From a bacterium (GTDB lineage: Bacteria > Patescibacteriota > Minisyncoccia > Phycocordibacterales > DATDWN01): DNA of 48,326 nucleotides. Position 1 is the first letter of the stretch. Every line of letters begins with the position of its first letter. Below are positions 4,218-24,880 of the stretch, piece by piece. The stretch is taken from assembly GCA_037134875.1 (NCBI GenBank), contig JBAXLH010000006.1:1-48326 (forward strand). Reading direction: 5' to 3'. The position numbers and the translations under genes are program-made. The notes beneath the pieces were generated by a model that saw only the letters and a list, made by a program, of their open reading frames with translations, searched no databases and was not told the DNA's origin.

Positions 4218-4332
4218 CTCAACTCACAGGAGTACACATTTTTGGGTCATTGCGAGCGCGACGGCGCGAACACGAGGAATTTTCTAGCAAGAAAATATCC
4301 GTGCCCAAAAATGTGTACTCCTGTGAGTTGAG
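4218..4332 (+). repeat. Hairpin element copy 1 (GACG/AGCA core, perfect 29-bp arms)
   Basis: Arm 4218-4246 is the exact reverse complement of 4304-4332; core cattgcgagcgcgacggcgcgaacacgaggaattttctagcaagaaaatatccgt. Confidence 0.92.
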
Positions 4333-4407
4333 GAGAAGATACTTAAAAAAGTTTTTGCACAGTTGCGATAGTATTTTATTTCACTGTGTATTATAATTGT
4401 ATTGATT

Positions 4408-5013
4408 ATGGAACCTAAATTTCAATCATCATTCATTCCAAAAAAACCTATTGGAAATGGATCAGAAATACGTTCGGCTCCTATCTACACCGGAAACATT
4501 TTTTCTACTGTCGCAACCGCACTATTCATTGTCACCATTCTCGGAGCTGGAGGTATTTTTGCATACGAGCAATATTTAAATAGTCAGATAGATGCAGTAA
4601 ACAAACAAATCCTTGATGCAAAAAACGCATTCAAGCCAGAATCAATCCAGTCACTGCTTGATATTGACTCACGTATTAGCTCCACACAACAGCTTCTCCA
4701 GAAACACGTTGCGGTCTCAGAACTTTTTGGTTTGATTCAAGATTTGACCGTAAAAAAGGTAAAATTCAATAACTTTTCTTTTTCAAACACAAATAATGCT
4801 TTAAATATATCAATGGATGTTGAAGCACAGAGCTACAATGCTCTTGCTGAGCAGTCAGATATCTTTGCAAAAGACACATTTCTCAAAAATCCGCAGTTTT
4901 TTGGATTCGATTTGGCAGAAAATGGTAATATAAAGGCAAAGTTCACAGCAACTGTTGATCCAACACTTATTTCATACCAAAAAAAGATCCAAAAAGACAC
5001 ATCTGCACAATAA
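4408..5013 (+). CDS. pilN: PilN-like pilus alignment protein
   Basis: N-terminal SFIPK (PilM-binding-like) motif, one TM, coiled coil, ferredoxin-like C-terminus; follows pilM. Confidence 0.75.
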   Translation: MEPKFQSSFIPKKPIGNGSEIRSAPIYTGNIFSTVATALFIVTILGAGGIFAYEQYLNSQIDAVNKQILDAKNAFKPESIQSLLDIDSRISSTQQLLQKHVAVSELFGLIQDLTVKKVKFNNFSFSNTNNALNISMDVEAQSYNALAEQSDIFAKDTFLKNPQFFGFDLAENGNIKAKFTATVDPTLISYQKKIQKDTSAQ

Positions 5014-5014
5014 T

Positions 5015-5569
5015 ATGAAATCACTTATTCCATTTTTAGTTATCATAGTTTGTATCGCGGCCTATTTTCTCTATATAGGTCCTGGTATTAGTGATGTAAA
5101 CGTACTCAGAGCAAAATTGTCAGATTATATCAATACGAGCAATCAGTCTACACAAATAAACAAAACTCGAGACTCAATCCAAGCAACACTCAATTCAATT
5201 CCTGGAGAAGACATTGCAAAACTCGACAAAGTTGTACCTGACACAATGGACAGCGTTCTTTTGGTGTCAGATCTCAGCACTATTGCAAGCAGGTATGGAA
5301 TGGTAGTACGAAGTGTGCAGATAGCTGAACCAACAGAAAATACGGGGGATAGGGTTGTTGTTCGTGAGGCACAAGGTCCATTCAAAGTCACAGCAGTTGG
5401 GTTTACGGTAAATGGTGGCTATGATCAATTCATCAAATTTTTGAAAGATCTTGAAACAAGTGCTCGACTGTTGGATGTCAAGACAATTGCCATCAAAGAT
5501 TCTTCCAAGACGGCCAATGGGACATCATACGATTTCACCTTAGCAGTTAATACATATTCACTTAGATAA
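5015..5569 (+). CDS. pilO: PilO-like pilus alignment protein
   Basis: TM, coiled coil, L...VP, G.Y..F..FL..LE...RL pattern typical of PilO. Confidence 0.85.
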   Translation: MKSLIPFLVIIVCIAAYFLYIGPGISDVNVLRAKLSDYINTSNQSTQINKTRDSIQATLNSIPGEDIAKLDKVVPDTMDSVLLVSDLSTIASRYGMVVRSVQIAEPTENTGDRVVVREAQGPFKVTAVGFTVNGGYDQFIKFLKDLETSARLLDVKTIAIKDSSKTANGTSYDFTLAVNTYSLR

Positions 5570-5570
5570 T

Positions 5571-5954
5571 ATGGGATCATCACTTCTCAAAAAACTCATA
5601 ATGTCTCTCATAATAGTCGGTGGACTTGGGTTTATTGCGTACAGCATCTTTTTTATGGCCCCAAGTGCTGATGTTTCGAGTGTTGCGTCGAGTACAGATT
5701 CAACAGGAGATGGAAATGATATTGTCTCACTCGCACAAAAGCTCCAAAATGTAAAAATAGATCAGACACTTTTTTCTTCTAATATTTTCAAATCTCTCAA
5801 GGACTACTCTGCTCCGGTAACTCCAGAGCCACAAGGTAGACCAAACCCATTTGCTTCGATAGGTAACGATGCAAATTTTGTGCCATCTACTCCTGTTACC
5901 AAGCCAGCTACGACTACACAGAAATCAGCTGGTGCAACGTCTGGAGTATTCTAG
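5571..5954 (+). CDS. Small membrane-anchored pilus accessory protein (PilP position, GRPNPF motif)
   Basis: One TM, Ser/Thr linker, PQGRPNPF resembling the PilP RxPF motif; lies after pilO. Confidence 0.6.
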   Translation: MGSSLLKKLIMSLIIVGGLGFIAYSIFFMAPSADVSSVASSTDSTGDGNDIVSLAQKLQNVKIDQTLFSSNIFKSLKDYSAPVTPEPQGRPNPFASIGNDANFVPSTPVTKPATTTQKSAGATSGVF

Positions 5955-5974
5955 GCGCAATTAATTGATTATTT

Positions 5975-7690
5975 ATGGATATTACAGAAGTTCTCGTACA
6001 AAAAGGCCTACTCAAGGCAGAAAATGTTGATGCTATTAAAGACGAAGCAGTCTCAACAGGTCTGACAATTGAGCAGGTTCTCATAAAAAACGGCGTGTCC
6101 GCAAATGACATCCTACAAGCAAAGGGTGAGTTTTTGGATATTCCGACGAAAAAAATCGACAATCAGGAGATACCTGGCAAAATTTTGGAGTATATTCCCG
6201 AGGACTCCGCACGACACTATCGTTTTGTTCCACTTGCTGTGACAGATGGAGTGCTCGAGATTGGAATGGTTGATCCGGATGATATCGAGGCTCACGATGC
6301 GCTCAACTTTATTTCTTCAAAAGTGCAGATGCCTTTCAAAATTTTTCTTATCACAGAAGAAGATTTTGGAAAAGTAATTACATTGTACAAAGGTCTGACA
6401 GGAGAAGTGTCAAAAGCTCTCAATGAACTTGAAACAGAACTCCGAATAGAAACTTCTGCAGAGGAAGAAAAAGAAAACAAAAAAGATTCTTCACAGAGTG
6501 GTCCGATTAGCGAGGATGCACCGGTAACAAAAATCGTAGCAACTATTTTGCGATATGCGACTGATGGAAATGCCTCCGACATTCACATTGAGCCATGGCG
6601 AGAAAACGTAAAAGTACGTTTTCGAGTTGATGGTGTGATGAATACCAGCCTCGTGTTGCCGTTCAAGGTCCACTCGGCTGTGATTGCGCGTATCAAAATT
6701 CTCTCCAATATGCGTCTCGACGAAAAACGCAAACCACAAGACGGACGTTTTACTGCGCGTATCGAAGGTCGCAAAATTGACTTCCGTGTCTCTACATTTC
6801 CGACATATTTCGGTGAAAAGGTGGTTATGAGAATTCTTGATCAGGAAAAGGGTGTCAAAAAACTCGACCAAATCGGTCTCTCAAAAAGAAATCTCGATCT
6901 TATTCGTGAAGCAATCGAAAAACCCTACGGACTCATTCTCATTTCTGGTCCGACCGGATCTGGAAAAACAACAACACTGTATTCGATGTTAAACGAAATT
7001 GACCGCGAACATCAAAACGTGCTTTCTCTCGAGGATCCTATCGAATACAACATTGAGGGAATGTCACAGTCTCAAGTGAAGGCGGAAATTGGTTATACAT
7101 TTGCATCCGGTTTGCGTACAACACTCCGACAAGACCCCGATGTTATCATGGTGGGTGAGATTCGAGACAAAGAGACAGCACAGCTGGCCATCCAAGCTGC
7201 GCTCACTGGTCACCTTGTGCTTTCTACTATTCACACCAACTCAGCTACTGGTGTTATTCCGCGACTCGTAGATATGGGTGTTGATCCATACCTCATTGCA
7301 CCTACACTTATTCTCGCAATCGCTCAACGACTTGTGCTCGGTCTCTGTCCTGATGGTGGAAAGGAGATGGTGCTCGAAGGAGGTTTGAAAGTGATGATAG
7401 ACAAGCAGTTTGAAGATTTACCAAAAAAATTCAGAGACGAACTTCCTCTCAAAGACAAAGTATATGAAGCTGTCAGCACAAATGATTGTCCAAACGGTAC
7501 GCGTGGACGAGTCGCTGTGCTCGAAGTTTTGGAAATGACAAAGGAAATAGAAGCTGTTATTTTGAAAAGTCCTACTGAGCTCGAGATTACAAAGATTGCA
7601 CGATCAATGGGAATGCTCACAATGAAAGAAGATGCGATTATAAAAGCGATGAACAGAGAGATTCCTTTTGAAGAAGTGAACACGCTGTGA
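5975..7690 (+). CDS. pilB: Type IV pilus extension ATPase PilB/GspE
   Basis: ASDIHIEP, PQDGR, Walker A GPTGSGKTT, LRQDPDVIMVGEIRD, TGHLVLSTIHTN. Confidence 0.95.
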   Translation: MDITEVLVQKGLLKAENVDAIKDEAVSTGLTIEQVLIKNGVSANDILQAKGEFLDIPTKKIDNQEIPGKILEYIPEDSARHYRFVPLAVTDGVLEIGMVDPDDIEAHDALNFISSKVQMPFKIFLITEEDFGKVITLYKGLTGEVSKALNELETELRIETSAEEEKENKKDSSQSGPISEDAPVTKIVATILRYATDGNASDIHIEPWRENVKVRFRVDGVMNTSLVLPFKVHSAVIARIKILSNMRLDEKRKPQDGRFTARIEGRKIDFRVSTFPTYFGEKVVMRILDQEKGVKKLDQIGLSKRNLDLIREAIEKPYGLILISGPTGSGKTTTLYSMLNEIDREHQNVLSLEDPIEYNIEGMSQSQVKAEIGYTFASGLRTTLRQDPDVIMVGEIRDKETAQLAIQAALTGHLVLSTIHTNSATGVIPRLVDMGVDPYLIAPTLILAIAQRLVLGLCPDGGKEMVLEGGLKVMIDKQFEDLPKKFRDELPLKDKVYEAVSTNDCPNGTRGRVAVLEVLEMTKEIEAVILKSPTELEITKIARSMGMLTMKEDAIIKAMNREIPFEEVNTL

Positions 7691-7718
7691 TACTATATAT
7701 ACAGTAACAAAATTATTT

Positions 7719-8114
7719 ATGACCGAAGAAAATAAAAACGTAAAGATATTGCTTGTCGATGATGACAGATTTCTGCTCGATATGTATGTGCTCAAATTTA
7801 AATCGAACGGTATACATATAGACACGTGTGCAAGTAGCAAAGCGGCACTCGACAAAATTCATGAAAATGATACATACGATATTATTTTGCTTGATATCAT
7901 AATGCCAGGAATGGATGGAGTAGAGCTACTCAAAACAATCAGAGATGAAAAATTGGCACAAAAATCTACCATAATAATGCTCACAAATCAGGCCGATGAG
8001 ATTGAAAAAGTCAAAAAAATTGGTGTTGATGGTTTTATTATAAAAGCCACATCTATTCCGTCAGAAGTTGTTGCTTCGGTACTCGATATTCATCAAAAGA
8101 AAATTAATAAATAA
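7719..8114 (+). CDS. Single-domain response regulator (CheY-like receiver)
   Basis: ILLVDDD, LLDIIMPGMDG (phosphoacceptor Asp), MLTN, FIIK. Confidence 0.92.
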   Translation: MTEENKNVKILLVDDDRFLLDMYVLKFKSNGIHIDTCASSKAALDKIHENDTYDIILLDIIMPGMDGVELLKTIRDEKLAQKSTIIMLTNQADEIEKVKKIGVDGFIIKATSIPSEVVASVLDIHQKKINK

Positions 8115-8126
8115 TTTACATATACA

Positions 8127-9194
8127 ATGGCATCTGAATATGCAAAAAAATTTGAGGAACTTGTTGAACTAATGCTCAAAGAAGACGCATCAGACCTCCA
8201 TCTTTCTGAAGACCGCCAGCCAATGATACGTGTTGCTGGTTCTCTCATTCCGATGGTCAAATATCCAGCACTCACCAAGTCTGATATGAAAAGTATTTTG
8301 GAGCTTCTTCTTGATGATTCAAAAAAACAGATATTTGAGGATACAAAATCAGTTGACCTTGCATATAGTCACAACGAAAAAACTCGTTTCAGATGTAATG
8401 TATTTATGCGTATTGGCAAAATCAGTCTTGCAATGCGTCTCATACCGAGACAAATAAAAACTATCGAAGAACTCAGACTTCCTTCCATAATTGAGACATT
8501 TACCACAAAACAGCAGGGATTTTTCCTTGTAGTGGGTCCAACTGGTCATGGCAAAAGTACCACTCTTGCTTCTCTTATCGAAATGATTAACGAGAGACGT
8601 TTGGAACACATCATTACAATTGAAGATCCGATTGAATACCTCTTTGAATCAAAAAAGTCCGTGATTGATCAGCGAGAAATTTTACAGGACAGTCCAGACT
8701 TTCACAAAGCACTCAAGGATATGTTCCGAGAAGATGTGGATGTGCTGATGGTGGGAGAAATGCGAGATCCAGAAACAATGTCAACCGCCGTGACCGCTGC
8801 AGAGACCGGACACCTCGTGTTTTCAACACTGCACACCAACACAGCTGCACAGACTGTTTCGCGTATCATTGACTCGTTCTCTACAGAACAACAAGACCAG
8901 ATTCGCGTTCAACTCTCGGCCAGTCTTCTGGGTATTTTCTCCCAGCGTCTCGTACCACGAGTGTCTGGAGGACTCATCCCAGCTTGTGAGCTTCTCATCA
9001 ACAACACAGCTGTAGCAAACCTCATCCGAGAAAACCGCACACATGAACTCGAGTCAGTTATTGAGACCAGCTCGGATCAGGGAATGATAAACCTCAACAA
9101 ATACTTGGCGGAGCTCGTCAGTGCTGGAGAAATAACGATTGAAAACGCGTATTTGTATTCAAGTAATCCAAAAAGTTTGGAAAGGATGTTATAA
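8127..9194 (+). CDS. pilT: Type IV pilus retraction ATPase PilT
   Basis: ASDLHL, GPTGHGKST, TIEDPIE, VGEMRD, AETGHLVFSTLHT, AVANLIRE (PilT AIRNLIRE motif). Confidence 0.94.
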   Translation: MASEYAKKFEELVELMLKEDASDLHLSEDRQPMIRVAGSLIPMVKYPALTKSDMKSILELLLDDSKKQIFEDTKSVDLAYSHNEKTRFRCNVFMRIGKISLAMRLIPRQIKTIEELRLPSIIETFTTKQQGFFLVVGPTGHGKSTTLASLIEMINERRLEHIITIEDPIEYLFESKKSVIDQREILQDSPDFHKALKDMFREDVDVLMVGEMRDPETMSTAVTAAETGHLVFSTLHTNTAAQTVSRIIDSFSTEQQDQIRVQLSASLLGIFSQRLVPRVSGGLIPACELLINNTAVANLIRENRTHELESVIETSSDQGMINLNKYLAELVSAGEITIENAYLYSSNPKSLERML

Positions 9195-9201
9195 TAAATG
9201 T

Positions 9202-9320
9202 AGATTCCAGAGTAAAAAATTTAATTTCAAAAAACGGATAAATTTTTGCTAAAATTTTCCGGCGTGTAGTGCCGTCGCGCTCGCAATGTTTTTGAAATCA
9301 AATTTTTTACTCTGAAATCT
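9202..9320 (-). repeat. Hairpin element copy 2 (32-bp arms, 2 mismatches)
   Basis: Arms 9202-9233/9289-9320; minus-strand core cattgcgagcgcgacggcactacacgccggaaaattttagcaaaaatttatccgt. Confidence 0.9.
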
Positions 9321-9331
9321 GGCTATCTCAT

Positions 9332-10537
9332 ATGATTTTTACATACAAAGCAATTACAGCGACAGGGGAGAAGACAGAGGGCACAATCGATGCTGTGAGT
9401 GTTGATGTTGCAATCAATCAGCTCCAAAAGCGCAGTCTCATTATTTCCGAAATTCATGCACCAGATGAAAACAGATTTAGAATAGACACACTCTCATTTT
9501 TCAATCGTATTTCTGGCAAGGATGTGGTGATTCTCTCGCGTCAAATGGCGACACTTTTCCAGGCGCAGGTTTCGGCGTTGCGTATTTTCCGCCTCATCGG
9601 TGGTCAAGTCGACAGTCCAGCTCTCAAAAAGGTACTTTTGGAAATAGCTGATGATATCCAAGGTGGAAGCTCTATTTCCACAGCTCTTTCCAAACATCCC
9701 GACGCATTTTCTGACTTTTACGTAAATATGGTAAAGGCGGGAGAGGAGTCTGGAAAGCTCGATGAGACATTCAACTATCTCGCGGACTATTTGGACAGAA
9801 CATACGAAGTCACATCAAAAGCAAAAAATGCTCTTATTTATCCAGCATTCGTTATTACGACTTTCATAGGAGTTATGATTCTGATGCTCACTGTTATTAT
9901 TCCAAAAATCAGCCTGATGCTCAAAGACAGTGGTCAGGAAGTGCCGATTTATACCAAGGCCGTACTAGCACTCAGTAGTTTGTTTGTAAACTACGGTGTA
10001 TTTTTGGCGATTGGTATCGTAGTTGCTGGATTTTTGCTCTGGAGATTTTCTAGAACGACTGAAGGTGGGATGACTCTGGACAAGTTGAAACTCGATACTC
10101 CATACATAGGGGATTTGTACCGCAAACTCTACCTCTCGCGTATTGCAGACAATATGAACACTATGATTATCAGCGGTATTCCTATTTTGCGTGCTTTGGA
10201 AATCACATCGTCCGTCGTTGACAACAAAGTCTACAAAATGATTTTGGATAGAACTCTCACAGAGGTCAAAGGTGGTAGCTCTCTCTCGGCATCATTCGGT
10301 ATTTATCCAGAAATTCCAGGTATTATGGTACAAATGATAAAAGTGGGAGAGGAAACCGGAGAAGTGGGTGAAATTCTCAAAACTCTCGCAAAATTCTACC
10401 AACGAGAAGTTTCTGTGGCGGTGGATACTCTGGTGGGTCTTATTGAGCCGGTTATGATTGTCTCTCTCGGTCTTGGAGTGGGTGTTTTGCTGGCTGCGGT
10501 GCTTATGCCGATCTATAACATCGCCGGCGCCGGATAA
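9332..10537 (+). CDS. pilC: Type IV pilus inner-membrane platform protein PilC/GspF
   Basis: F.YKA...G....G, GEESGKLD, ALIYP, GEETG, LIEP motifs; three TMs. Confidence 0.95.
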   Translation: MIFTYKAITATGEKTEGTIDAVSVDVAINQLQKRSLIISEIHAPDENRFRIDTLSFFNRISGKDVVILSRQMATLFQAQVSALRIFRLIGGQVDSPALKKVLLEIADDIQGGSSISTALSKHPDAFSDFYVNMVKAGEESGKLDETFNYLADYLDRTYEVTSKAKNALIYPAFVITTFIGVMILMLTVIIPKISLMLKDSGQEVPIYTKAVLALSSLFVNYGVFLAIGIVVAGFLLWRFSRTTEGGMTLDKLKLDTPYIGDLYRKLYLSRIADNMNTMIISGIPILRALEITSSVVDNKVYKMILDRTLTEVKGGSSLSASFGIYPEIPGIMVQMIKVGEETGEVGEILKTLAKFYQREVSVAVDTLVGLIEPVMIVSLGLGVGVLLAAVLMPIYNIAGAG

Positions 10538-10589
10538 AAAACTTCCAAATTTGGCGAACTCCTTCGTTGAACTTCAAAAAACGTGGTTT

Positions 10590-10709
10590 GACAAAACAAC
10601 ACAACATATGTTTTCTGAAAACAGAATATTCGCCTGCTGGCGAATTTCTTCGTGCTCGACCCGTCGGTCTGCGCAATGTTTCAGAAAACATATGTTGTAT
10701 TGTTTTGTC
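10590..10709 (-). repeat. Hairpin element copy 3 (31-bp arms, 1 mismatch)
   Basis: Arms 10590-10620/10679-10709; minus-strand core cattgcgcagaccgacgggtcgagcacgaagaaattcgccagcaggcgaatattctgt. Confidence 0.9.
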
Positions 10710-10728
10710 TCACAGTTAAAACCTTTTC

Positions 10729-10915
10729 CCTCACCGGACACTACTTTTCGAATCATTCGCAGGATTTTGGCTAAAATGTAAATGTTTTTTCCTAGCCGAA
10801 AGCGTTTACCCCTGTGCAACAAGGGGCGACCAACGGGAGTCCGCGATAGGCAGGAAAAAACATTTTTACATTTTACAAAAGACGAGGACGATTCGAAGAG
10901 TAGTATCCGGTGAGG
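10729..10915. other. ~190-bp nested inverted-repeat structure (candidate structured RNA or MITE-like element)
   Basis: Outer arms cctcaccggacactacttttcgaatc/gattcgaagagtagtatccggtgagg (24/26); inner arms taaaatgtaaatgttttttcct/aggaaaaaacatttttacatttta; GC-rich branched apex. Confidence 0.75.
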
Positions 10916-10920
10916 AGGTT

Positions 10921-10997
10921 ACCCAGTAGTAGATTTTGGCATTGTTCGGATTAAAATCCGAACGTGCAAAGCACAATGCCAAAATTCACTACTGGGT
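10921..10997. other. 77-bp hairpin with 25-bp arms and a two-hairpin apex
   Basis: acccagtagtagattttggcattgt/acaatgccaaaattcactactgggt (23/25); apex ttcggatt-aa-aatccgaa and gtgc-aaa-gcac. Confidence 0.75.
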
Positions 10998-11154
10998 TTA
11001 TCCACATCTCCACTTTTCACAAAAATCTCTATTGCCGTATAATATAGATATTCGTTTTAACAAAAACGGTTTGTGTCGAAAATGGGCGCAAACAGGTCGA
11101 GGTAAAAAATATTTAGTTATTAGTTTTAATAAAGTATTTAACAAAATATAAAAT

Positions 11155-11652
11155 ATGACAAAAAAGTTTAACAAAGGTTTTACACTTATTGAATTGCTCG
11201 TCGTTATTGCAATTATCGGTATTCTTTCATCAGTTGTTTTGGCATCGCTTAACACAGCACGAACAAAAGGTGCAAATGCAGCTATCAAGGGAGACTTGAA
11301 TGGTATTCGAGCTCAGGCAGAGTTGTTCTATGATAATCAGAGTCCTCAATCATATGGAACAGCATACGCTGCAGCAGCTTGTGCATCAGCAGGTGCAGGA
11401 ACAATATTTAACGATGCTAACATAAAGCAGGCTATTGCTCATGCTGTTACTCAAAATGGTGGAACAGATGGAACATGTTATTCAGACGCAACCCACTACG
11501 CTATTGCAGTCCTTCAAAAAGGAGGTGGAGCATGGTGTATAGACAACTCAGGTGTCTCACGAGAGAAAACATCAGGAGGTACAGCTTACTCAGCAGCTAC
11601 TCTTGGTGCTTCTCCAGCAGCAATTACTTCAGGTACGATTGCATGTAACTAA
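11155..11652 (+). CDS. pilA: Type IV major pilin (PilA-like)
   Basis: Class III signal KG|FTLIELLVVIAIIGILSSVVLASL, four Cys, Ala/Gly-rich; own terminator. Confidence 0.9.
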   Translation: MTKKFNKGFTLIELLVVIAIIGILSSVVLASLNTARTKGANAAIKGDLNGIRAQAELFYDNQSPQSYGTAYAAAACASAGAGTIFNDANIKQAIAHAVTQNGGTDGTCYSDATHYAIAVLQKGGGAWCIDNSGVSREKTSGGTAYSAATLGASPAAITSGTIACN

Positions 11653-11667
11653 TCACGAATTAGTTTC

Positions 11668-11705: not shown

Positions 11706-11751
11706 ACACAAGTGGGGCGTTTATTTGTTTTTGTTTTCACTGTATAATGTA

Positions 11752-12629: not shown

Positions 12630-12750
12630 TGATTTACCTCGCACACATATGTTTTTCAAAAACATTGCGAGCTCGACGGAGCGAACACGAGGAATTTTTC
12701 AGCAGAAAAATATCCGTTTTTTGAAAAACATATGTGTGTGAGGTAAGTCA
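12630..12750 (+). repeat. Hairpin element copy 4 (33-bp arms, 2 G-U positions), followed by a 3'-end remnant at 12758-12779
   Basis: Arms 12630-12662/12718-12750; core cattgcgagctcgacggagcgaacacgaggaatttttcagcagaaaaatatccgt. Confidence 0.92.
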
Positions 12751-12812
12751 GATAAGGAAAATTTATCCGTTTTTTGAAAAGTGTGTAATTACAAAATAAG
12801 TCCTGTGATAAA

Positions 12813-17691: not shown

Positions 17692-17693
17692 TG

Positions 17694-17718
17694 CTCGCAG
17701 ATGTCCTCTGCGAGTTTT
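17694..17718 (+). terminator. Intrinsic terminator
   Basis: ctcgcaga-tgtcc-tctgcgag-tttt immediately after the stop codon. Confidence 0.7.
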
Positions 17719-17844
17719 AATTTTGCAAAAAATATGTTTAGTGGATGACTAGCATATTATTGTACATTTTTGAAAACAGAATATTCATTTAGAGTGCCCC
17801 CTACCTCATATTATTTTGCTTTCTGGAAACGGATAAATGTTTTC

Positions 17845-17966
17845 AATGAACCACACAATAGTATATATTTTTGAAAACAGAATATTCGCCTGCTGGCGAA
17901 TTTCTTCGTGCTCGGCCCGTCAGCCTGCACAATGTTTCAAAAATATATACTATTGTGTGATTCATT
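17845..17966 (-). repeat. Hairpin element copy 5 (32-bp arms, 1 mismatch), with remnants at 17766-17786 and 17826-17838
   Basis: Arms 17845-17876/17935-17966; core nearly identical to copy 3, with ggct-GACG-ggcc. Confidence 0.9.
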
Positions 17967-18061
17967 TCCATATGATTTTTTTCGGCTCTGTTAAAAAACG
18001 GCTTAAAATATGGATAAAATACAGGTGCTGGGTGGGGAAGTGAGTGGAAATGGAAAAGTAC

Positions 18062-18089
18062 TTGACAAATAAAACAAAGGGTGTATAAT
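18062..18089 (+). promoter_or_regulatory. Consensus sigma70 promoter
   Basis: TTGACA-N16-TATAAT. Confidence 0.8.
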
Positions 18090-18159
18090 GTTTATTAGAG
18101 TGGTTGTCATACCACTACTTCAAATAAGACTCCCCGTTGCGGGAGTACAGGAGAAAAAA

Positions 18160-19098
18160 ATGAGTTTCTTGAATCTGCTGAACGTGGGCATCATCAAGGC
18201 CCAGGACGCCCTCAAAGGGGATACCAGCGAGAAGGTCGCGGCGATCCGCAAGGCCAATCAGGAGAAAGCGGCTATCGAGGCTGCCAACATCCTGAAGCAG
18301 GTCACGGCGGGCACCACCCGCCTGGCCGACGTGAAGACGTCGACCGAGACGATTATGCGCGCGTTGTTCGGGCTCGTTGCCGCCAACGTGGCGGCCGTCT
18401 TGGCCTTCGTGGCCAAATTCCCCAACAGGTTGTACGTGGGGAACATCCCGGAGGTCGTGAAGACCACCGGGAAACGCGACGAGCTCGGCGCCATCTACCT
18501 CGGGCGCGTGCTGTCGCCGGAATTCGGACCCACGTGGGTCCGTCCGGACTGGCTCGAGGAAGGGGAAGATGACGCGAACGAGTTTTGGTTCGCGGTCAGC
18601 TCGCTGTTCGCCGCCATGCTCGGCGCAGGAGCCGAGCCACGGCAGTTCCGCTTCGTGGCGGGTGCGCTGGAAACGGCGTACGCCGATCGGCTCGCTTCGG
18701 CGACCGACCAGAGACTCTGGAAGCTCCTGGAGGCGGTGCGGAACACCGGGACGTACCACGTCCCCGGCGACAACCCGCACCAGCAACACGCCCCGGCCGC
18801 CAACGGCAAGGGCCACGGCCACAACAACGGCCAGCAACAGCGCCGTCGGGATGTGCCGAACGTTCCGGAGCGGCATTTCGCTCCGGAATGCTCGCGGCCC
18901 CCGGCCTCCGAGGCCAGCGCCTCCGAAGTGGAGGCCTACCGCGCCGGGCTCAACGCGGCGCACGCGGCCAAGGCTCCGCTCGCCGAGCACCTGGCGACCA
19001 AGGGTGTGACGGTCAACGTGACCGTCGCGCCCCCGCCGAAGAAGGTCCGGAAGCCCCGCTCCAAGAAGGAGACGGCGACCGAAACCGCGGCGCAGTAG
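18160..19098 (+). CDS. GC-rich ORFan (312 aa) with low-complexity, basic C-terminus
   Basis: AGGAG SD at 18149-18153, ATG 18160, G/C-ending codons in this frame, own promoter and terminator. Confidence 0.75.
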   Translation: MSFLNLLNVGIIKAQDALKGDTSEKVAAIRKANQEKAAIEAANILKQVTAGTTRLADVKTSTETIMRALFGLVAANVAAVLAFVAKFPNRLYVGNIPEVVKTTGKRDELGAIYLGRVLSPEFGPTWVRPDWLEEGEDDANEFWFAVSSLFAAMLGAGAEPRQFRFVAGALETAYADRLASATDQRLWKLLEAVRNTGTYHVPGDNPHQQHAPAANGKGHGHNNGQQQRRRDVPNVPERHFAPECSRPPASEASASEVEAYRAGLNAAHAAKAPLAEHLATKGVTVNVTVAPPPKKVRKPRSKKETATETAAQ

Positions 19099-19160
19099 TA
19101 CTTTTAGCGGGTTGAGACCCCCAAAAAAATCTCATCCTCAGGTTACCAACCTCAGGCCCC

Positions 19161-19189
19161 GGCCCCACGCAATGTGGGGCCTTTTCTTT
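19161..19189 (+). terminator. Intrinsic terminator
   Basis: ggccccac-gcaat-gtggggcc-ttttcttt. Confidence 0.85.
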
Positions 19190-19200
19190 ACCTAAAATAT

Positions 19201-19228
19201 TTGACAGGTGTTTTTTTAGGTATATAAT
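19201..19228 (+). promoter_or_regulatory. Consensus sigma70 promoter with no downstream sense gene
   Basis: TTGACA-N16-TATAAT; -35 bracketed by acctaaaa/ttttaggt inverted repeat. Confidence 0.65.
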
Positions 19229-19245
19229 GATGTGTATCACTATGA

Positions 19246-19290
19246 GAAAGACCCTTGTGCAGATTCGTCTGCATTGGGGGCTTTTTCTTT
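19246..19290. terminator. Hairpin with TTCG loop, likely bidirectional terminator at the NYN gene 3' end
   Basis: gaaagacccttgtgcaga-ttcg-tctgcattgggggctttttc. Confidence 0.6.
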
Positions 19291-19772
19291 TATATCCTCT
19301 TTGAAAATTTATGATAATGGTCGTTCAAGAATGTTATTTCAACATTCTTGTTTCTTAAAAGAAAAGAACATCTATTTGTATCAGGAGCTACGATTCGGTT
19401 TAATGATTTATTTTCTTGCAGAAACTCCACAAGACATCCAAAATCTCCATCTCCGGTCACTAATATGCAAGAATCAAAAGCTTTTGTATAAAAATCAGAA
19501 GTAGCTTTTAGTACCAACTCTGCATCACAATTTCCTTTAATTTTTTCCCCGACTGATACTGTTTGTTTGAAAACTAGAATAAATCCTGATTTCTGCAAAT
19601 GTTCATAAAATTTGCCTCTTTCTGGGACAAGACCAATAAAAAGATATACAAATTGAGGATTATATTTTTGTCTGAGCCATCCACGAAATTTTTTATAATC
19701 AATTTCAAATCCCAGTTCTTTGGCTCCCCGATAGAGGTTATTTCCATCAATATAAATATTGATTTTAGACAT
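19290..19772 (-). CDS. NYN domain (LabA/DUF88, PIN-fold) nuclease
   Basis: IYIDGNNL, KGNCDAEL, LVTGDGDF acidic motifs; start at ATG 19772 (MSKINIY). Confidence 0.9.
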   Translation of the reverse strand: MSKINIYIDGNNLYRGAKELGFEIDYKKFRGWLRQKYNPQFVYLFIGLVPERGKFYEHLQKSGFILVFKQTVSVGEKIKGNCDAELVLKATSDFYTKAFDSCILVTGDGDFGCLVEFLQENKSLNRIVAPDTNRCSFLLRNKNVEITFLNDHYHKFSKRI

Positions 19773-19838
19773 ACTAAAGATAATATCATATAATTTGAAA
19801 ATTTTGAAAAAAAAATTTATACTGTATAATACTTTTAT

Positions 19839-20129
19839 ATGATCAAACAACGAAATACATTTTTGCTCGGCATTTTCATTTTGCTCATCTGGGTGTTTTT
19901 CGGTATTCCGACATCGTGGAAAATATTTTTCACTATTCTCTCCGGTCTCTACCTCATATTTATTTCCGTCAAAATTTCTTTCCCTAAAAAAGGAATCGTA
20001 AAGCGTGCACGCAAAAAAGAAAAGACAACTCCAGTTTTTACCGAGAATTCTCCAATAGAAACAGAGACAAAAAGCATTGATGACAGTCAACACAGAGGCG
20101 ACTCAAATGGATTTGGCTCTGTACAATAG
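19839..20129 (+). CDS. Small two-TM membrane protein
   Basis: Two hydrophobic segments with FFGIPTSWK loop and basic tail; TATAAT 8 nt upstream. Confidence 0.75.
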   Translation: MIKQRNTFLLGIFILLIWVFFGIPTSWKIFFTILSGLYLIFISVKISFPKKGIVKRARKKEKTTPVFTENSPIETETKSIDDSQHRGDSNGFGSVQ

Positions 20130-20134
20130 TACAA

Positions 20135-21331
20135 ATGAAAAACACACTTGCTCAGTACAAACATATACTCTTTGTATGTGTTGGAATTATTTCTGCCATT
20201 ATTTTTTTCTTTGTATTGCCAAAAATTTTCACAGGACACTATGTACTCACAGGTAGTGCTGTGGCAACGCTTACTCAAAGTGCAGATGTGAAAAAAGATG
20301 TAACGCCGGTGTTTGTGCCGACGTACATAGCGACTCCTGTTCCAGTCAAAGGAATATATATGACGAGTTGGACTGCCGGTACGCCGTCTTTACGCGGAGC
20401 ACTGGTTAAACTCATTGATGACACAGAGCTCAACACAGTGGTCATTGATATAAAAGATTACTCGGGCAAAATTGTTTTTCCGATTGAAAATACGGACTTG
20501 AAAAAATTTGGCTCAGAGGAAGTACGTGTATCGGATATGCGAGACTTCGTAGAGTCTCTGCACAAAAAAGGCATCTATGTCATCGGACGTATCGCTGTGT
20601 TTCAGGATGCATATTTTGTAAAATATAAACCAGATTTGGCTGTCAAAAATAAAGCAGGGACGGCAGTGTGGAAAGACCGAAAGGGGATTTCGTGGATTGA
20701 TCCCGGCTCGCAGGAGTATTGGGATTATATTGTGCTCCTCGCACAGGAGACACGGAAGGTTGGGTTTGATGAAATAAATTTTGATTATATTCGTTTTCCG
20801 TCTGATGGAAATATGCAGGATATTTCGTATCCGTTTAGTAGTACGACGCCGAAAACAGTGGTAATGAAAAACTTTTTTGCCTATGTTACCGAACATCTGA
20901 AAAAAGGTGTAGCGAGTTCGTCTGCGCCAGAACTCAAGATTTCCGCCGACCTTTTTGGAATGGTGACGACGGCACAGGATGATATGGGTATCGGGCAGTA
21001 TCTAGAGAACGCTCTGCCATATTTTGACTACATAATGCCAATGGTGTATCCGTCACATTATCCGCCAACGTTTATTGGTTACAAAAATCCAGAAGCCTAT
21101 CCATACGAGGTAGTCAAATACGCAATGTCCGAGGCGGTCAAACGGGCAAATCTCGCAAGTACGAGTCCGGCGAAACTCCGTCCATGGCTCCAAGATTTTG
21201 GTTTGAAAATGACGTACGGCTCAGCCGAAGTCCGTGCACAGATCAAGGCAACGAATGACGTCGGACTCGACTCGTGGATTCTCTGGTCCGCTTCCAACAA
21301 ATATACGAAAGGCGCGTTGGATGCGAAATAA
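20135..21331 (+). CDS. Membrane-anchored putative glycoside hydrolase (DUF4015 TIM-barrel type)
   Basis: VKGIYMT, NTVVIDIKD, RIAVFQD, FDEINFDYIRFP, PMVYPSHY, RPWLQDF. Confidence 0.85.
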   Translation: MKNTLAQYKHILFVCVGIISAIIFFFVLPKIFTGHYVLTGSAVATLTQSADVKKDVTPVFVPTYIATPVPVKGIYMTSWTAGTPSLRGALVKLIDDTELNTVVIDIKDYSGKIVFPIENTDLKKFGSEEVRVSDMRDFVESLHKKGIYVIGRIAVFQDAYFVKYKPDLAVKNKAGTAVWKDRKGISWIDPGSQEYWDYIVLLAQETRKVGFDEINFDYIRFPSDGNMQDISYPFSSTTPKTVVMKNFFAYVTEHLKKGVASSSAPELKISADLFGMVTTAQDDMGIGQYLENALPYFDYIMPMVYPSHYPPTFIGYKNPEAYPYEVVKYAMSEAVKRANLASTSPAKLRPWLQDFGLKMTYGSAEVRAQIKATNDVGLDSWILWSASNKYTKGALDAK

Positions 21332-21344
21332 TAAGTTGAGATAG

Positions 21345-21469
21345 TTTCAAAACTCGTTGAAGCAGATTCTTTTTGGAGACTTCGGAGCGCGACGGCGCGA
21401 GATTGAGCGAAAGTCTAGCAAGACTTATCGCGTGCTCCAAAAAGGATGTGCTGAATAAGAGTTTTGAAA
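21345..21469 (+). repeat. Hairpin element copy 6 (divergent core, arms with internal loop)
   Basis: Arms tttcaaaactc..agcagattctttttggag/ctccaaaaaggatgtgct..gagttttgaaa; core gcgc-GACG-gcgc and gcga-aagtct-AGCA-agactt-A-tcgc. Confidence 0.85.
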
Positions 21470-21479
21470 TTAAGAACAA

Positions 21480-21623
21480 TGATTTGAATTCAGAAACTTT
21501 TATTCGACATATGTTTTTTGGAGTACGGATATTTGCCTGCTGGCAAATTCCTCAAGTCTCGGCTACCCGCCTGCGAAGCCTCCAAAAAACATATGTTCTC
21601 AACAAGTTTCTGAATTCAAATTA
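21480..21623 (-). repeat. Hairpin element copy 7 (divergent, adjacent and inverted to copy 6)
   Basis: Arms atttgaattcagaaactt..acatatgttttttggag/ctccaaaaaacatatgt..aagtttctgaattcaaat; minus-strand core gga-atttgcc-AGCA-ggcaaat-A-tccgt. Confidence 0.85.
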
Positions 21624-21663
21624 AATTTTTATTTCCTTTTCATTTATTGTATAATACACACAT

Positions 21664-23589
21664 ATGAGTGACTCCGCTGATGTAACATATTTCGCAGAGA
21701 CTGACGCGAGAAATAAAAAAGTAAAATTTGGCGTGAAGTCAAAGGACAGACTGCGACACGTGTACGTGATCGGAAAGACTGGTGTTGGAAAGTCTACACT
21801 TCTCGAAAATATGGCAATTCAGGATATCCAGAAAGGCGAGGGTATGGCTTTTATTGATCCACATGGAGGTACAGCAGAAAAACTTCTCGAGTATGTGCCA
21901 GAACACCGCATCAAAGATGTGCTCTATTTTGCGCCGTTTGATATGGAGTATCCGGTTTCGTTCAATGTTTTGCAGGACATTGGTCCGGACAAGAGACACC
22001 TCGTGGTTAACGGTCTTATGTCTACGTTCGAAAAGATTTGGGCGGATGCGTGGTCAGCCAGAATGTCATACATTTTGCAATACACAATTATTGCGCTCCT
22101 CGAATATCCCGGTGCGACGCTCCTCAGTATCAACAGAATGCTCTCAGACAAGGATTACCGCAAGAAAATTGTTGATAACATTACTGATCCGTCGTGCAAA
22201 TCTTTTTGGGTGGATGAGTTTGGAAAGTATACCGAGCGATTTGCTGCCGAGGCAACACCGGCAATCCAAAACAAAGTCGGACAATTTACATCAAACCCGC
22301 TCGTGCGAAATCTCATCGGTCAGCCGGACTCGTCTTTTGATATTCGCAAAATGATGGACGAGAAAAAGATAATGATTATCAACTTGTCCAAAGGGCGTGT
22401 GGGTGAGGGGAATGCAAACCTCATTGGTGCAATGCTCATCACAAAAATCTATCTCGCTGCTATGTCACGTGCGGACAAAAGTGATGCCGAGCTCGCAAAA
22501 CTTCCAAATTTTTATTTGTACGTTGACGAGTTTCAGTCATTTGCCAACAAATCATTCGCGGACATCCTCTCCGAAGCACGAAAATACAAACTCTCTCTCA
22601 ATATTGCACACCAATACATCGAACAAATGGAGGAGGAGGTTCGTGATGCAGTGTTTGGTAACGTCGGTACGATGGTGACGTTCCGAGTGGGTGCATTTGA
22701 CGCCGAGGTTTTGGAAAAAGAATTTGCTCCGACGTTTACCGCAGAGGATTTGGTCAATCTCGGATTTGCACAGATTTATCTCAAACTTATGATAGACGGC
22801 GTTTCTTCATCGCCATTTTCCGCCCGCACACTTGCACCGATCGCCAAGCCAGAGATTCGATACAAAGATCAAATCATACAGAGCTCCCGAGAACAATTCT
22901 CCAAACCTCGTGCTGAGGTAGAAGAAAATATTCGCAAATGGCACGAGCAGGGTATTCAAAAAGATGCAAAACCTGCGTCAAACAAAGATATTTCTCATAC
23001 ACACGAAGAACAAACTGAGGTGCGGAATGATAATTTTTCTCGACGAGAACACAAAAGACCAGAAACACAAAATCAAGTTTCTCCTATTCCACAAAACAAT
23101 AGACCAATTGCACAGAATGAACCACCAAAAGTTGACCCAAACAAGATTGCTTTTATGAAAGCAGCGGAAATGCTCCGCGAAAAAGAAGTCAAAGAAATAC
23201 CAAAGGTGCATGAAAAACCACAGACAGCTTCTCTTTCTAATTTGGCACACGAACAAGATAGAAAAAAAGTTCCAACCAAAGAAAATATATCGAGTCTCAA
23301 GGATGCCTTGTCTCAGGTAATTAATAACAAACCAAAAGGGTTTCAGGAAAAGCCAAGAACGGAAATTCCTCCGAGACCGAGACCGCAAGAGACACCAAAG
23401 GTAGAACAAAAATCCGAATATATTAAACAAGAAAATTCTCCAATCACAAAACCTCATCATACTGAGCCGAGAAAGGAAGAAAGAAAACCGGAGCAACATG
23501 AGAAAAAAGAGACAGAAACCAATCCATCAAAAAATGAAGTGCCAGAGGATGTTCTCCGCAAACTGCTCACAATGGAAGATACACAATAA
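21664..23589 (+). CDS. TraD/VirD4 (T4CP)/HerA-like P-loop ATPase with long low-complexity C-terminal tail
   Basis: RHVYVIGKTGVGKS, FIDPHG, LYVDEFQ, SEARKY, AHQYIEQ; last ~210 aa rich in E/K/P/Q. Confidence 0.85.
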   Translation: MSDSADVTYFAETDARNKKVKFGVKSKDRLRHVYVIGKTGVGKSTLLENMAIQDIQKGEGMAFIDPHGGTAEKLLEYVPEHRIKDVLYFAPFDMEYPVSFNVLQDIGPDKRHLVVNGLMSTFEKIWADAWSARMSYILQYTIIALLEYPGATLLSINRMLSDKDYRKKIVDNITDPSCKSFWVDEFGKYTERFAAEATPAIQNKVGQFTSNPLVRNLIGQPDSSFDIRKMMDEKKIMIINLSKGRVGEGNANLIGAMLITKIYLAAMSRADKSDAELAKLPNFYLYVDEFQSFANKSFADILSEARKYKLSLNIAHQYIEQMEEEVRDAVFGNVGTMVTFRVGAFDAEVLEKEFAPTFTAEDLVNLGFAQIYLKLMIDGVSSSPFSARTLAPIAKPEIRYKDQIIQSSREQFSKPRAEVEENIRKWHEQGIQKDAKPASNKDISHTHEEQTEVRNDNFSRREHKRPETQNQVSPIPQNNRPIAQNEPPKVDPNKIAFMKAAEMLREKEVKEIPKVHEKPQTASLSNLAHEQDRKKVPTKENISSLKDALSQVINNKPKGFQEKPRTEIPPRPRPQETPKVEQKSEYIKQENSPITKPHHTEPRKEERKPEQHEKKETETNPSKNEVPEDVLRKLLTMEDTQ

Positions 23590-23593
23590 CTTT

Positions 23594-24757
23594 ATGAACA
23601 AAAAAAATATTCTGATTTTTTCTACGGCGTACTATCCATTTGTTGCAGGAGCCGAAGTTGCAATAAAAGAAATTACTGATCGACTCACTACCGATTATGA
23701 ATTTGATCTTATTACCGCAAAAATGGCCAAAAATCTGGCTGATTTTGAGCGAGTGGGAAATGTAAATGTGTACAGAATAGGAAGTGGCCGACCGATGCTC
23801 GATAAACTCCTCTTGCCTTTTCGAGGTGCGTTGCAAGTGCTGAAATTGCAAAAAGAAAAAAAATACCACTGTTTTTGGGCAGTAATGGTTACATTCGGTA
23901 GTGGTGCTGCCTACATTGCAAACATTTTAAGTGTATTAAATAACAGAGGAAAGGTTCCGATTGTGTTAAATTTGCAAGAAGGCGACTCCGAAGAACATTT
24001 GAAATTCAAGTGGGGAGGGCTCATTGCTTTTTCATGGTGGATTGCTCTTAAAAATACAGATTTTCTGACTGTGCTCAGTTCATTTTTGCTCCAGAGAGCA
24101 AAAAGTTTTTGTTATAATGGAAAAGCGTTGATTGTTCCAAACGGTGTTGATACGGCACATTTCTCTCATCTTTTTTCCGAAGAAGAAAAAAAAGTTGTTG
24201 CAGAGCGACTTCAAAAAAAAGAGCACGATATTTTTTTGGTTACAGCATCACGGCTCGTAAAGAAAAACGCGGTGGATGATATTATATCAGCGCTTGTGTA
24301 CTTGCCAAGAAATATTTTTTTGATTGTGATCGGAAAAGGGGAAGAGGGATGTAGACTTCAGGCACAGGCGGTCAGACTCGGGGTTGATAAAAGAGTGAAA
24401 TTTTTGGGTTTTATTCCTCATGACGAAATGCCGAAATATTTTTCAGTTTGTGATATATTTGTGAGACCGAGTCGATCAGAAGGTTTTGGTAATTCATTTA
24501 TTGAGGCGATGGCTGCGAGACTACCGGTCATTGCTACACCGGTTGGTGGAATTACAGACTTTTTGGACGACAAGGAGACTGGAATTTTTTGTTCACCAAA
24601 TAATCCAAAAAGCTTGGCAGAGACGGTTATGTTTTTGCTCGAGAATGAAAGTTTGGAAGCAAAAATTGTCGGTGGAGCATACGAGAGGGTTATTTCAACA
24701 TACGACTGGTCTCTCATTGCTCAAAAAATGAAAAATGAAGTATTTGAAAAAATATAA
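23594..24757 (+). CDS. Glycosyltransferase family 4 (GT-B)
   Basis: GAE, IVPNGVD, PSRSEGFGNSFIEAMA (E-x7-E). Confidence 0.92.
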   Translation: MNKKNILIFSTAYYPFVAGAEVAIKEITDRLTTDYEFDLITAKMAKNLADFERVGNVNVYRIGSGRPMLDKLLLPFRGALQVLKLQKEKKYHCFWAVMVTFGSGAAYIANILSVLNNRGKVPIVLNLQEGDSEEHLKFKWGGLIAFSWWIALKNTDFLTVLSSFLLQRAKSFCYNGKALIVPNGVDTAHFSHLFSEEEKKVVAERLQKKEHDIFLVTASRLVKKNAVDDIISALVYLPRNIFLIVIGKGEEGCRLQAQAVRLGVDKRVKFLGFIPHDEMPKYFSVCDIFVRPSRSEGFGNSFIEAMAARLPVIATPVGGITDFLDDKETGIFCSPNNPKSLAETVMFLLENESLEAKIVGGAYERVISTYDWSLIAQKMKNEVFEKI

Positions 24758-24765
24758 AATGCAAG

Positions 24766-24880
24766 ACTTCTCTCATAAAAATACAATTTCAAAAACATTG
24801 CGAGCGCGACGGCGCGAACACGAGGAAAATTTTAGCAAAAATTTATCCGTTTTTTGAAATTGTATTTTTATGAGAGAAGT
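24766..24880 (+). repeat. Hairpin element copy 8 (perfect 30-bp arms)
   Basis: Arm 24766-24795 is the exact reverse complement of 24851-24880; core cattgcgagcgcgacggcgcgaacacgaggaaaattttagcaaaaatttatccgt. Confidence 0.92.

Follow-up and report, generated by a model that had tools for sequence, protein, structure and literature searches.

A lineage-restricted family of palindromic hairpin repeats, with in-frame copies in genes, in the Patescibacteria

A 48,326-nucleotide contig of a patescibacterial genome (JBAXLH010000006.1, assembly GCA_037134875.1; the whole stretch is referred to here as the window) contains eight copies of a structured repeat that recurs throughout the genome and in most of its relatives. 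We favor, with moderate confidence, the interpretation that these copies are non-autonomous palindromic insertion elements of a family restricted to one lineage, akin to Rickettsia palindromic elements (RPEs) and hairpin-type MITEs, of which a folded single strand is the relevant form and next to which a short stretch of flank has become palindromic. The unit would be the entire 115-145-nt hairpin with its arms, which would insert either way round into intergenic spacers and, if tolerated, in frame into genes, and the form that counts would be one folded single strand, the "sense" strand. Its stem would run from an outer helix through an asymmetric, purine-rich internal loop and a middle helix that varies to a U-run/A-run helix, above which two small conserved hairpins would meet in a three-way junction.

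Copies in the window and their distribution

The coordinates and strands of all eight copies in the initial annotation were confirmed (8/8). Copy 1 (4218..4332, + strand; 131.9 bits) has a type A core, which starts with CATTG, and perfect 29-nt arms (100% complementary). Type A cores are also found in copy 2 (9202..9320, - strand; 112.2 bits), which occupies the PilT-PilC spacer antisense to both genes; copy 4 (12630..12750, + strand; 134.9 bits), located 3' of the prepilin peptidase gene; and copy 8 (24766..24880, + strand; 125.8 bits), which has a glycosyltransferase gene on one side and the next ORF on the other. Copy 3 (10590..10709, - strand; 111.5 bits), located 3' of PilC and antisense to it, and copy 5 (17845..17966, - strand; 111.0 bits) are of type A2. 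The type C core of copy 6 (21345..21469, + strand; 100.4 bits) starts with CTTCGG, and the type B core of copy 7 (21480..21623, - strand; 101.9 bits) starts with CTTCGC and has the P2 loop GGGUA. These two copies are arranged head to head, and the arms of both are interrupted by an asymmetric internal loop, with YGTYGA on the 5' side and GA..AAG on the 3' side, which is encountered again across the genome and in other genera. Two weak candidate remnants lie directly after copies 4 and 5: the first (12757..12781, + strand) would comprise the P3 3' strand and the start of the 3' arm (seen by eye and as an nhmmer match with an E value of 8.8 at profile positions 56-77), and the second (17818..17840, - strand) appears by eye to be of the same kind. 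P3 followed by the U-run looks terminator-like in some A-type copies but not in the B or C types.

All eight copies could be aligned over a core of two small hairpins, one with the loop GACG or GGGUA and the other with the loop AGCA, and a bulged A. An inverted-repeat scan recovered the reported arms of about 30 bp in seven copies (29-45 nt, 84-100% complementary, spaced 55-58 nt), while copy 6 yielded only an 18-nt seed arm. The arms had also been described as largely unrelated between copies, which is true of the outer 10-20 nt only; the inner part is common to the copies and consists of a T-run followed by 3-5 nt up to the core, mirrored by an A-run after the core.

A profile of the core alone gave 44 matches at E<1e-3 in the 771-kb genome, including 41 full-length copies, which are spread singly over 15 of the 18 contigs. 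The genome also carries 65 further long hairpins, and other hairpin families in it have perfect private arms of 30-35 nt as well. The copies occur in either orientation with no preference: 15 point the same way as co-directional neighbor genes and 13 the opposite way (crude ORF calls). The covariance model matched all 24 genomes of the same family and 9 of 16 further families in the order; the element is present in 34 of the 41 genomes of the family and order, and only 1 of 150 other genomes sampled across the phylum had matches. Between two species of one genus (G003 and G015), only 2 element sites are orthologous, among 12 and 9 loci, respectively, and at these two sites both the core subtypes and the arms differ. 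Viral contigs gave no match to an exact 32-nt core stretch or to a degenerate core pattern, and a metagenome scan returned two contigs, one near-identical to the G015 copy in MnmA and the other identical to a copy in the present genome (G000). Contigs of four DNA sequencing runs mapped on positions 4150-24149 break at the element cores, and these runs gave no clean joint skipping any element over that interval; sequence variants inside the copies look like cross-mapping of paralogs.

Fold, covariation, and strand-specific wobble

When folded, the sense strand forms a long stem with two small hairpins on top. RNAalifold applied to the eight copies gave 48 pairs, of which 40 had changed on both sides, far beyond chance. 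Pairing was found in 89.9% of cells, compared with 59.7% in shuffles and 37-52% with the partners slid, and 46 of the 48 pairs of the consensus fold showed both-side changes. All three helices covary strongly, and the junction and loop nucleotides are conserved. The helices differ between copies and stay complementary within each copy, even where the cores are identical; copies with 100% identical cores carry quite different middle helices.

The constraint is strand specific. In the 41 copies of this genome, which were located with the core alone, the isolated transition mismatches of the arms comprised 26 G.U and 1 A.C (p=4e-7), and the corresponding counts in 33 copies from other genomes were 16 and 1; this 42-to-2 bias indicates that one folded strand is under constraint. 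The 13 copies antisense to host genes gave 12 G.U and 1 A.C (with host orientation taken from crude ORF calls). The counts for sister families F2, F3, and F4 (2:1, 0:3 with an arbitrary choice of strand, and 3:1) are too few to use. Readings of the arm loop as a hammerhead, hairpin ribozyme, K-turn, or sarcin-ricin motif were rejected, since none fits all copies by eye and in Rfam.

If the copies are palindromic insertion elements, their helices would drift via compensatory changes through G.U intermediates and would look "private" because only pairing is required, and the cores would have stayed the same because they are constrained, spread recently, or undergo gene conversion between copies. 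A point against this interpretation is the combination of identical cores with different middle helices, for which simple copy-and-drift is insufficient; it requires gene conversion, more than one master lineage, or arms that are re-templated. We infer that the folded strand serves as a mobility intermediate (ssDNA or RNA) and not as an RNA serving the host.

An alternative that we consider rather unlikely is that the copies are working structured RNAs (a multicopy small RNA or a cis-acting module), transcribed in their own sense and each selected by the host, with the spread and the in-gene copies as a side effect. In every context class, the wobble bias goes with the strand of the element itself, and a per-copy bias arises more easily if each resident copy is selected; unless turnover is fast, this is more in keeping with a working RNA than with selfish copies in decay. 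The strong covariation of all three helices and the conservation of the junction and loops are also as expected of such RNAs, streamlined genomes have kept dozens of copies, and arm-less versions of the core adjoin tRNA genes (twice in G000 and once in G003), as a small RNA gene might. The scarcity of common sites between G003 and G015 nevertheless argues against host-selected positions, as do the in-frame copies within genes in both orientations. A scan for promoters and terminators likewise found no site consistently placed relative to the copies; given that the flanks are not conserved, a promoter would need to lie inside the element, where none is evident.

Insertion of whole hairpins and the origin of the arms

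Four copies lie in frame within genes, i.e., those for MnmA, UvrD, an RNase R-like (RNB-type) protein, and an AlkD-like protein, where they add approximately 42-46 amino acids to the host proteins and leave the Pfam domains intact. In the MnmA loop, inserts of 3 to 43 extra residues were found in 17 of the 27 relatives parsed, in addition to this genome (the comparison of insert length with hairpin length is ambiguous by about 7 amino acids). Four of these relatives have full-size in-frame inserts, three of which match the covariance model, in both orientations, and 13 more have shorter hairpins at the same loop. Such recurrence could reflect vertical descent with in-place inversion instead of repeated insertion.

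The evidence favors the whole hairpin, arms included, as the inserted unit. Four copies at unrelated loci have a common unit of 116-118 nt that includes the arms, copies at different loci in G003 and G015 have arm sequence in common, and the UvrD insert of about 46 amino acids equals the length of the whole hairpin. A scaffold consisting of the T-run/A-run, the internal loop, and an AAATCT-type outer helix is conserved in the arms across copies and genera. The initial annotation had proposed that the arms, about 30 bp each, were made from target DNA on insertion and that aligned pil loci and empty sites would reveal this; in that form the proposal is not supported. The PilT-PilC spacer is at most 22 nt long in 12 of the 17 relatives parsed, compared with 137 nt here, and an empty orthologous site in G003 contains no arm-like sequence.

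Local generation of paired sequence was retained on a smaller scale. Just outside the 116-118-nt unit, the flanks of the four copies form perfect inverted repeats of 10, 11, 5, and 11 nt, while mismatched pairings of the same flanks gave only 0-3 nt (n=12). In addition, copy C2:20294 and the MnmA insert of G003 each have a loop region that is perfectly complementary to the other arm. The division between shared and private arm length was judged by inspection and by this four-copy flank test, a dynamic-programming measure being too lenient in AT-rich sequence. For palindromic insertion elements, these observations suggest that insertion, or a later event, may convert 5-11 bp of flanking DNA into an inverted repeat, most likely through copying by fold-back or template switching where the hairpin has its foot; the template-switch step in particular is a conjecture from the flank repeats.

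The fuller version of local arm generation, in which only the core of about 55 nt moves and arms of about 30 bp are made on the spot by inverted target duplication or hairpin-templated copying, we consider very improbable. It would account for identical cores paired with different helices, for the perfect 5-11-nt repeats, for the two loops converted into helix, and for the private arms of the other hairpin families in the genome. It is contradicted by the scaffold conserved across copies and genera, by the four copies that are alike in their arms, by the empty or short orthologous sites, and by the length of the UvrD insert, and simple copying cannot yield a conserved non-complementary loop.

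Candidate mobilizers and relation to known elements

The family seems to be undescribed so far. At the gathering level, the only Rfam 15 match in the window was the 16S rRNA, and at E values up to 5 only 17-31-bit matches to plant and animal miRNA hairpin models appeared (gathering scores of 80-245). This search, which had been suggested in the initial annotation, took in hammerhead, twister, hairpin, pistol, hatchet, Y RNA, retron, and HEARO-type RNAs; Rfam likewise had no match for the loci that are arm-less or related, and a literature search found no description of the family. The characterization as an unnamed, non-autonomous, structured element thus stands, and so does the statement that the window encodes no transposase or reverse transcriptase (RT): its contig has no match of the Y1, RT, or TnpB type. 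The TnpB-type domain PF07282 gave nothing above the cut-off in five genomes. G000 has a single RT match (C10:19432-20040), which is not adjacent to any copy, and a retron non-coding RNA was rejected as an identity because this match does not lie beside copies that span 15 of the 18 contigs.

Further points against palindromic insertion elements as the explanation concern mobility. Among the Y1, RT, and TnpB families, we identified no mobilizing enzyme and saw no insertion sequence with ends matching the element. A direct target-site duplication was not seen by eye at any of the eight window copies, and the four near-identical copies have inverted flanks instead.

REPs are 20-40 bp long, with 8-9-bp stems. 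The present elements resemble REP/BIME sequences, including CGTC-tagged REPs with RAYT, in being palindromic and in forming strand-specific ssDNA or RNA hairpins, some inside genes, and the possibility that they are outsize palindromes, REP/BIME-like or derived from IS200/IS605, which a RAYT-like Y1 (HUH) transposase moves as ssDNA, might draw on the strand-specific constraint, on the single Y1_Tnp gene in G000, and on the start of the arm loop 5' side (YGTY), reminiscent of the CGTC/TGTC tags in one REP superfamily (PMC3733652). We judge this very improbable: the co-occurrence with HUH/Y1 transposases suggested by the initial annotation proved negative (21 of 34 element-bearing genomes and 3 of 7 genomes without the element), 13 bearers have no Y1 match (including G003, with 13 element matches and 99% completeness, G015, and G002), the G000 gene is flanked by its own unrelated small palindrome with only three occurrences, orientation in the window is split 4+/4- while GC skew keeps its sign, and the size of 115-145 nt and the branched three-way-junction core are unlike those of REPs.

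A close parallel in build and habit is with the RPEs, which the review PMC10969869 describes as palindromic repeats of approximately 100-150 bp in a reduced genome, located in intergenic regions and repeatedly in frame in unrelated housekeeping genes whose ORF is left open, with no transposase known. In-frame palindromic insertion was likewise encountered here, in four genes and in MnmA of four relatives, but the elements belong to Patescibacteria, combine a conserved three-way-junction core with variable helices, and show a measured strand-specific wobble bias; given the different phylum, sequence homology to RPE families 1-10 is unlikely. Correia/NEMIS and ERIC elements are, according to the same review, short, non-autonomous, found in both orientations, and co-transcribed as long hairpins; in Correia elements, RNase III cuts the hairpins and in-place inversion is possible (PMC10969869). 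The present family is similarly short, non-autonomous, and inserted in both orientations.

Its ends set it apart from two groups. Whereas hairpin-forming MITEs have conserved terminal inverted repeats, target-site duplications, and a relationship to IS ends, the ends of the present elements are their least conserved portion, no direct duplication was seen, and the flanks are short inverted repeats. Integron attC sites are also single-strand hairpins with unpaired stem bases, in which the stems keep their pairing and vary in sequence from copy to copy, but they have conserved ends (R boxes, R''/R') around a variable middle, cassette arrays, and a neighboring integrase, unlike the variable ends and the singly dispersed, array-free copies described here.

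Two other systems are alike in possible mode of action, not in membership. Palindromic or double-hairpin selfish elements of organelles are small mobile hairpins in spacers and sometimes genes, with an unknown mechanism, and parvovirus ends are stems of about 125 nt with two small hairpins on top that undergo fold-back copying and exist in flip and flop forms. A speculative and unlikely extension of the insertion-element interpretation is that this family and at least four sister families of like build in this genome spread as a folded T-shaped single strand, the stem being re-templated on itself by fold-back or rolling-hairpin-like copying. If true, it would explain identical cores on different, perfectly paired helices, the 5-11-bp flank palindromes, the loops "corrected" into helices, and the equal orientations (flip and flop), and it would dispense with transposases of known families. 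To our knowledge, no bacterial element has been reported to spread in this way.

Patescibacterial genomes rank among the smallest and most streamlined in bacteria, and this one nevertheless carries 41 copies of the element along with the 65 further long hairpins. From a practical standpoint, the repeats break assemblies at their cores and inflate ORF calls, and modeling them is advisable in genome annotation. The family looks like palindromic selfish repeats of a variant form not described before. It provides a clean natural experiment for studying the spread and persistence of palindromic repeats that have no known transposase, and its members remodel conserved enzymes in frame. With the wobble bias pointing to one constrained folded strand, the old question of what moves RPE-like elements, and in which molecular form, becomes testable in an abundant environmental lineage.

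Copies and distribution of the hairpin elements

All eight copies proposed for the window by the initial annotation were recovered at the positions and on the strands first given. An inverted-repeat scan delimited seven of them, with arms of 29 to 45 nt (84 to 100% complementarity) and a center of 55 to 58 nt; copy 6 (21345-21469, +) yielded a shorter seed only. The core is common to all eight in a MAFFT alignment, and a covariance model built from these copies recovers every one. The genome containing the window (G000; 771 kb in 18 contigs, of which the window is contig C6) has 44 matches to a core-only profile at E<1e-3, including 41 of full length, a density of one copy per 19 kb. Among DNA contigs, assemblies break at element cores.

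Covariance-model matches were found in 34 of the 41 genomes of the family and order, including all 24 others of the same family (13 genera) and 9 of 16 other families of the order. In a wider phylum sample, in which just 22 candidates were scored per genome and weak or rare copies may be missed, 1 of 150 other genomes matched, and it belongs to the same class. The view that the elements belong to no described family was upheld in Rfam 15, where no family matched at gathering scores, nor when E was relaxed to 5, and the matches obtained were to low-scoring miRNA-hairpin models only. Searches of the full text of main articles turned up no description of repeats like these in the bacteria concerned, and a search of viral contigs gave zero matches.

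Strand constraint and turnover of sites

The structure predicted by RNAalifold for the eight window copies has a long outer stem (P1), two small hairpins (P2 and P3), and 48 pairs, 40 of which have changes on both sides. When 45 copies from G000 and 14 other genomes were aligned to the model, standard pairs occupied 89.9% of cells, compared with 59.7% in shuffles and 37 to 52% with partners slid, and both-sided changes occurred at 46 of the 48 pairs, in an alignment that is itself biased toward the model structure. The letters of the junction and loops are conserved across copies.

To count wobble pairs, we aligned each 5' arm to the reverse complement of its 3' arm, a procedure that scores both kinds of transition alike, and retained isolated mismatches bordered on both sides by three matches. 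The 41 G000 copies, picked by core sequence alone, contained 26 G.U, 1 A.C, and 11 transversion mismatches (p=4e-7); 33 copies from other genomes, counted after removal of the G000 rows and five antisense rows, contained 16 G.U, 1 A.C, and 2 transversions. The G.U:A.C ratio was 7:0 for copies oriented the same way as co-directional neighbors, 9:1 for those oriented the opposite way, 1:0 and 3:0 for sense and antisense copies in ORFs, and 6:0 in other contexts. These counts place one strand, the one that the core defines, under a pairing constraint tolerant of wobble pairs. Host transcription does not set the constrained strand. Nor, within the window, does replication direction: GC skew is positive throughout 1 to 35 kb, yet the copies split 4+/4-. 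Between co-directional ORFs, 15 G000 copies lie along the ORF direction and 13 against it (crude ORF calls). A working RNA kept at each site, the main rival to the mobile element that we favor, would explain the per-copy wobble bias more simply and retains an appreciable, if minor, probability; it is hard to square with how fast element positions turn over and with the presence of copies inside genes in either orientation.

The PilT-PilC spacer of G000 is 137 nt, consisting of copy 2 (9202-9320, -; 119 nt) and 18 nt. The same spacer, parsed in 17 relatives, is at most 22 nt in 12, 35 nt in one, and 59 to 117 nt in four; three of these four were inspected, and each contains an unrelated hairpin. 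None of the PilC loci of 27 relatives gave a strong match to the model. G003 (12 loci) and G015 (9 loci), two species of one genus, have only two orthologous element sites, at both of which the core subtype and the arms differ.

Four G000 copies lie in frame and stop-free within genes, encoding an MnmA-type tRNA-modifying enzyme (tRNA_Me_trans domains), a UvrD helicase, an RNB-family ribonuclease, and an AlkD-type protein of the DNA alkylation repair family; two are sense and two antisense to the host gene, and about 40 added residues are the only departure from intact Pfam domains. Elements have a mean of 1.95 stop-free frames out of six, versus 0.53 in mononucleotide shuffles, a crude null. 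The UvrD variable segment typically has 38 residues across 16 relatives (range 31 to 56) but 84 in G000; the insert is therefore of about the length of the whole hairpin. The MnmA segment between two conserved motifs, parsed in 27 relatives, is 23 to 24 residues in 10 and 26 to 45 in 13, the latter with shorter hairpins whose centers are different or missing; it reaches 62 to 66 residues, a full-size insert, in four relatives and G000. Three of these four relatives match the model, with both orientations represented. Overall, 17 of the 27 carry in-frame hairpin-forming inserts of varied length and sequence in this surface loop (e.g., L057, L060, L061, L072, L076, and L079). Either palindromic insertions have a hot spot here, or an old insert is evolving in place.

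Other hairpins and structured features

G000 has 86 hairpins with arms of at least 20 nt, 65 of them outside the studied family. A second family of five copies (window 10729-10915, +, directly beside copy 3 at 10590-10709, -; C1:44711-44892, C11:5502-5687, C2:2714-2913, and C3:65672-65845) combines private outer arms with a nested inner hairpin and a ~135-nt core starting ATTCGCAGG. A third, smaller family (window 10921-10997; C9:7471-7553 and C9:17537-17620) has conserved 25-nt arms and a 27- to 31-nt center with a small hairpin of its own. Another family, of about ten copies (C1:19110-19282, C1:21256-21424, C1:67416-67594, C1:18923-19076, C2:63070-63240, C3:8013-8172, C3:76322-76491, C5:51846-52015, C15:4266-4436, and C11:9679-9850), is built like the studied elements, with perfect private 30- to 35-nt arms ending in a T-run/A-run and a GC-rich core of ~105 nt starting ..CGCAGGCC; in G020, the sequence downstream of PilC (L024 2913-3083) includes a relative that shares the arm loop motif. 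Hairpins of ~70 nt (C1:171283-171351, C1:174040-174110, C15:2525-2595, C18:131-199, and C5:27750-27821) are conserved at their ends (CGTATAAAAT ... ATTTTAGACG), vary in their arms, and have a small hairpin at the center; conservation of the ends is the reverse of the studied family's pattern.

Arm-less cores, with P2, P3, and the same loops, occur at G000 C5:58300-58440 and C1:50140-50260, each fused to a copy of a tRNA's first ~24 nt just upstream of the intact tRNA gene, and within a tRNA cluster in G003 (C2:118540-118640). They matched nothing in Rfam or ARAGORN and may represent a source gene of the element core or a separate small RNA. At C1:50334-50687, ARAGORN predicts a tRNA-Asn with a 279-nt intron, and the same stretch has a weak, truncated match to a group I intron in Rfam. 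Upstream of the first gene after PilC (window ~11000-11155), a TTATCCACA box conserved across genera is followed by a TATAAT-like hexamer and next by a conserved leader opening with a small hairpin; the arrangement recurs at the same place in L015, L016, L022, L024, and L027 and may constitute a candidate promoter and structured 5' leader. A 16S rRNA gene is cut off by the window end, leaving its 5' part at 47640-48326.

Arm build and proposed mobility

Side-by-side comparison of the 41 G000 copies with copies from other genera revealed a common build; the arms are private only in part. Next to the core, a T-run and 3 to 5 nt on the 5' side are mirrored by an A-run 3' of the core; a middle helix of 6 to 15 bp varies freely in sequence with pairing kept; an asymmetric internal loop (5' YGTYGA / 3' GA..AAG) is present in most B- and C-type copies and most copies of relatives; and the outer helix is rich in A/T. 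Most copies in the window are of A type. Copies of this type usually have continuous, perfect arms, and in one of them (C2:20294) the loop region perfectly complements the opposite arm. Five B copies have cores 100% identical across a 74-nt aligned region. Three of them, and a fourth copy differing only in the P2 hairpin, have in common a 116- to 118-nt unit that includes the arms; the helices of the remaining two are quite different. Directly outside this unit, the flanks of the four copies are perfectly complementary over 10, 11, 5, and 11 nt, versus 0 to 3 nt in 12 mismatched flank pairings. There is therefore a real local effect, either an inverted duplication of short extent or a preference for palindromic targets.

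This local effect spans about 5 to 11 bp and not ~30 bp. The proposal that the ~30-bp arms are made locally at each site is weakened by the unit common to four copies and by the arm-build, flank, and insertion tests, including a G015 element site that is empty in G003 and lacks arm-like sequence there, in a spacer that itself aligns poorly; we consider it very unlikely. A REP/RAYT relationship is highly improbable, since Y1 transposase presence does not track the element (21 of 34 element-bearing versus 3 of 7 element-lacking genomes), and G003, G015, and G002 have 11 to 23 matches each and no Y1. G000 encodes a single Y1 transposase (IS200-like, RAYT-like; 217 aa) flanked by its own ~21-nt palindrome. 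The genome's sole three copies of this palindrome lie within C7:7828-9100, one immediately ahead of the gene, one within its 3' end, and one beyond the neighboring gene. It also has a single RT gene, on a contig other than the window's, and a search for TnpB-type proteins returned no match.

We lean, with modest confidence, toward a mobile element that is competent as a folded sense strand. At the foot of the hairpin, short fold-back or template-switch copying would generate the local flank palindromes and would sometimes "correct" loops. The present elements work like RPEs and hairpin MITEs as described in a review, but their branched core is conserved, their helices drift, and a constraint on the single strand can be measured. 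The family is best filed as a new form within the known class of palindromic selfish repeats.
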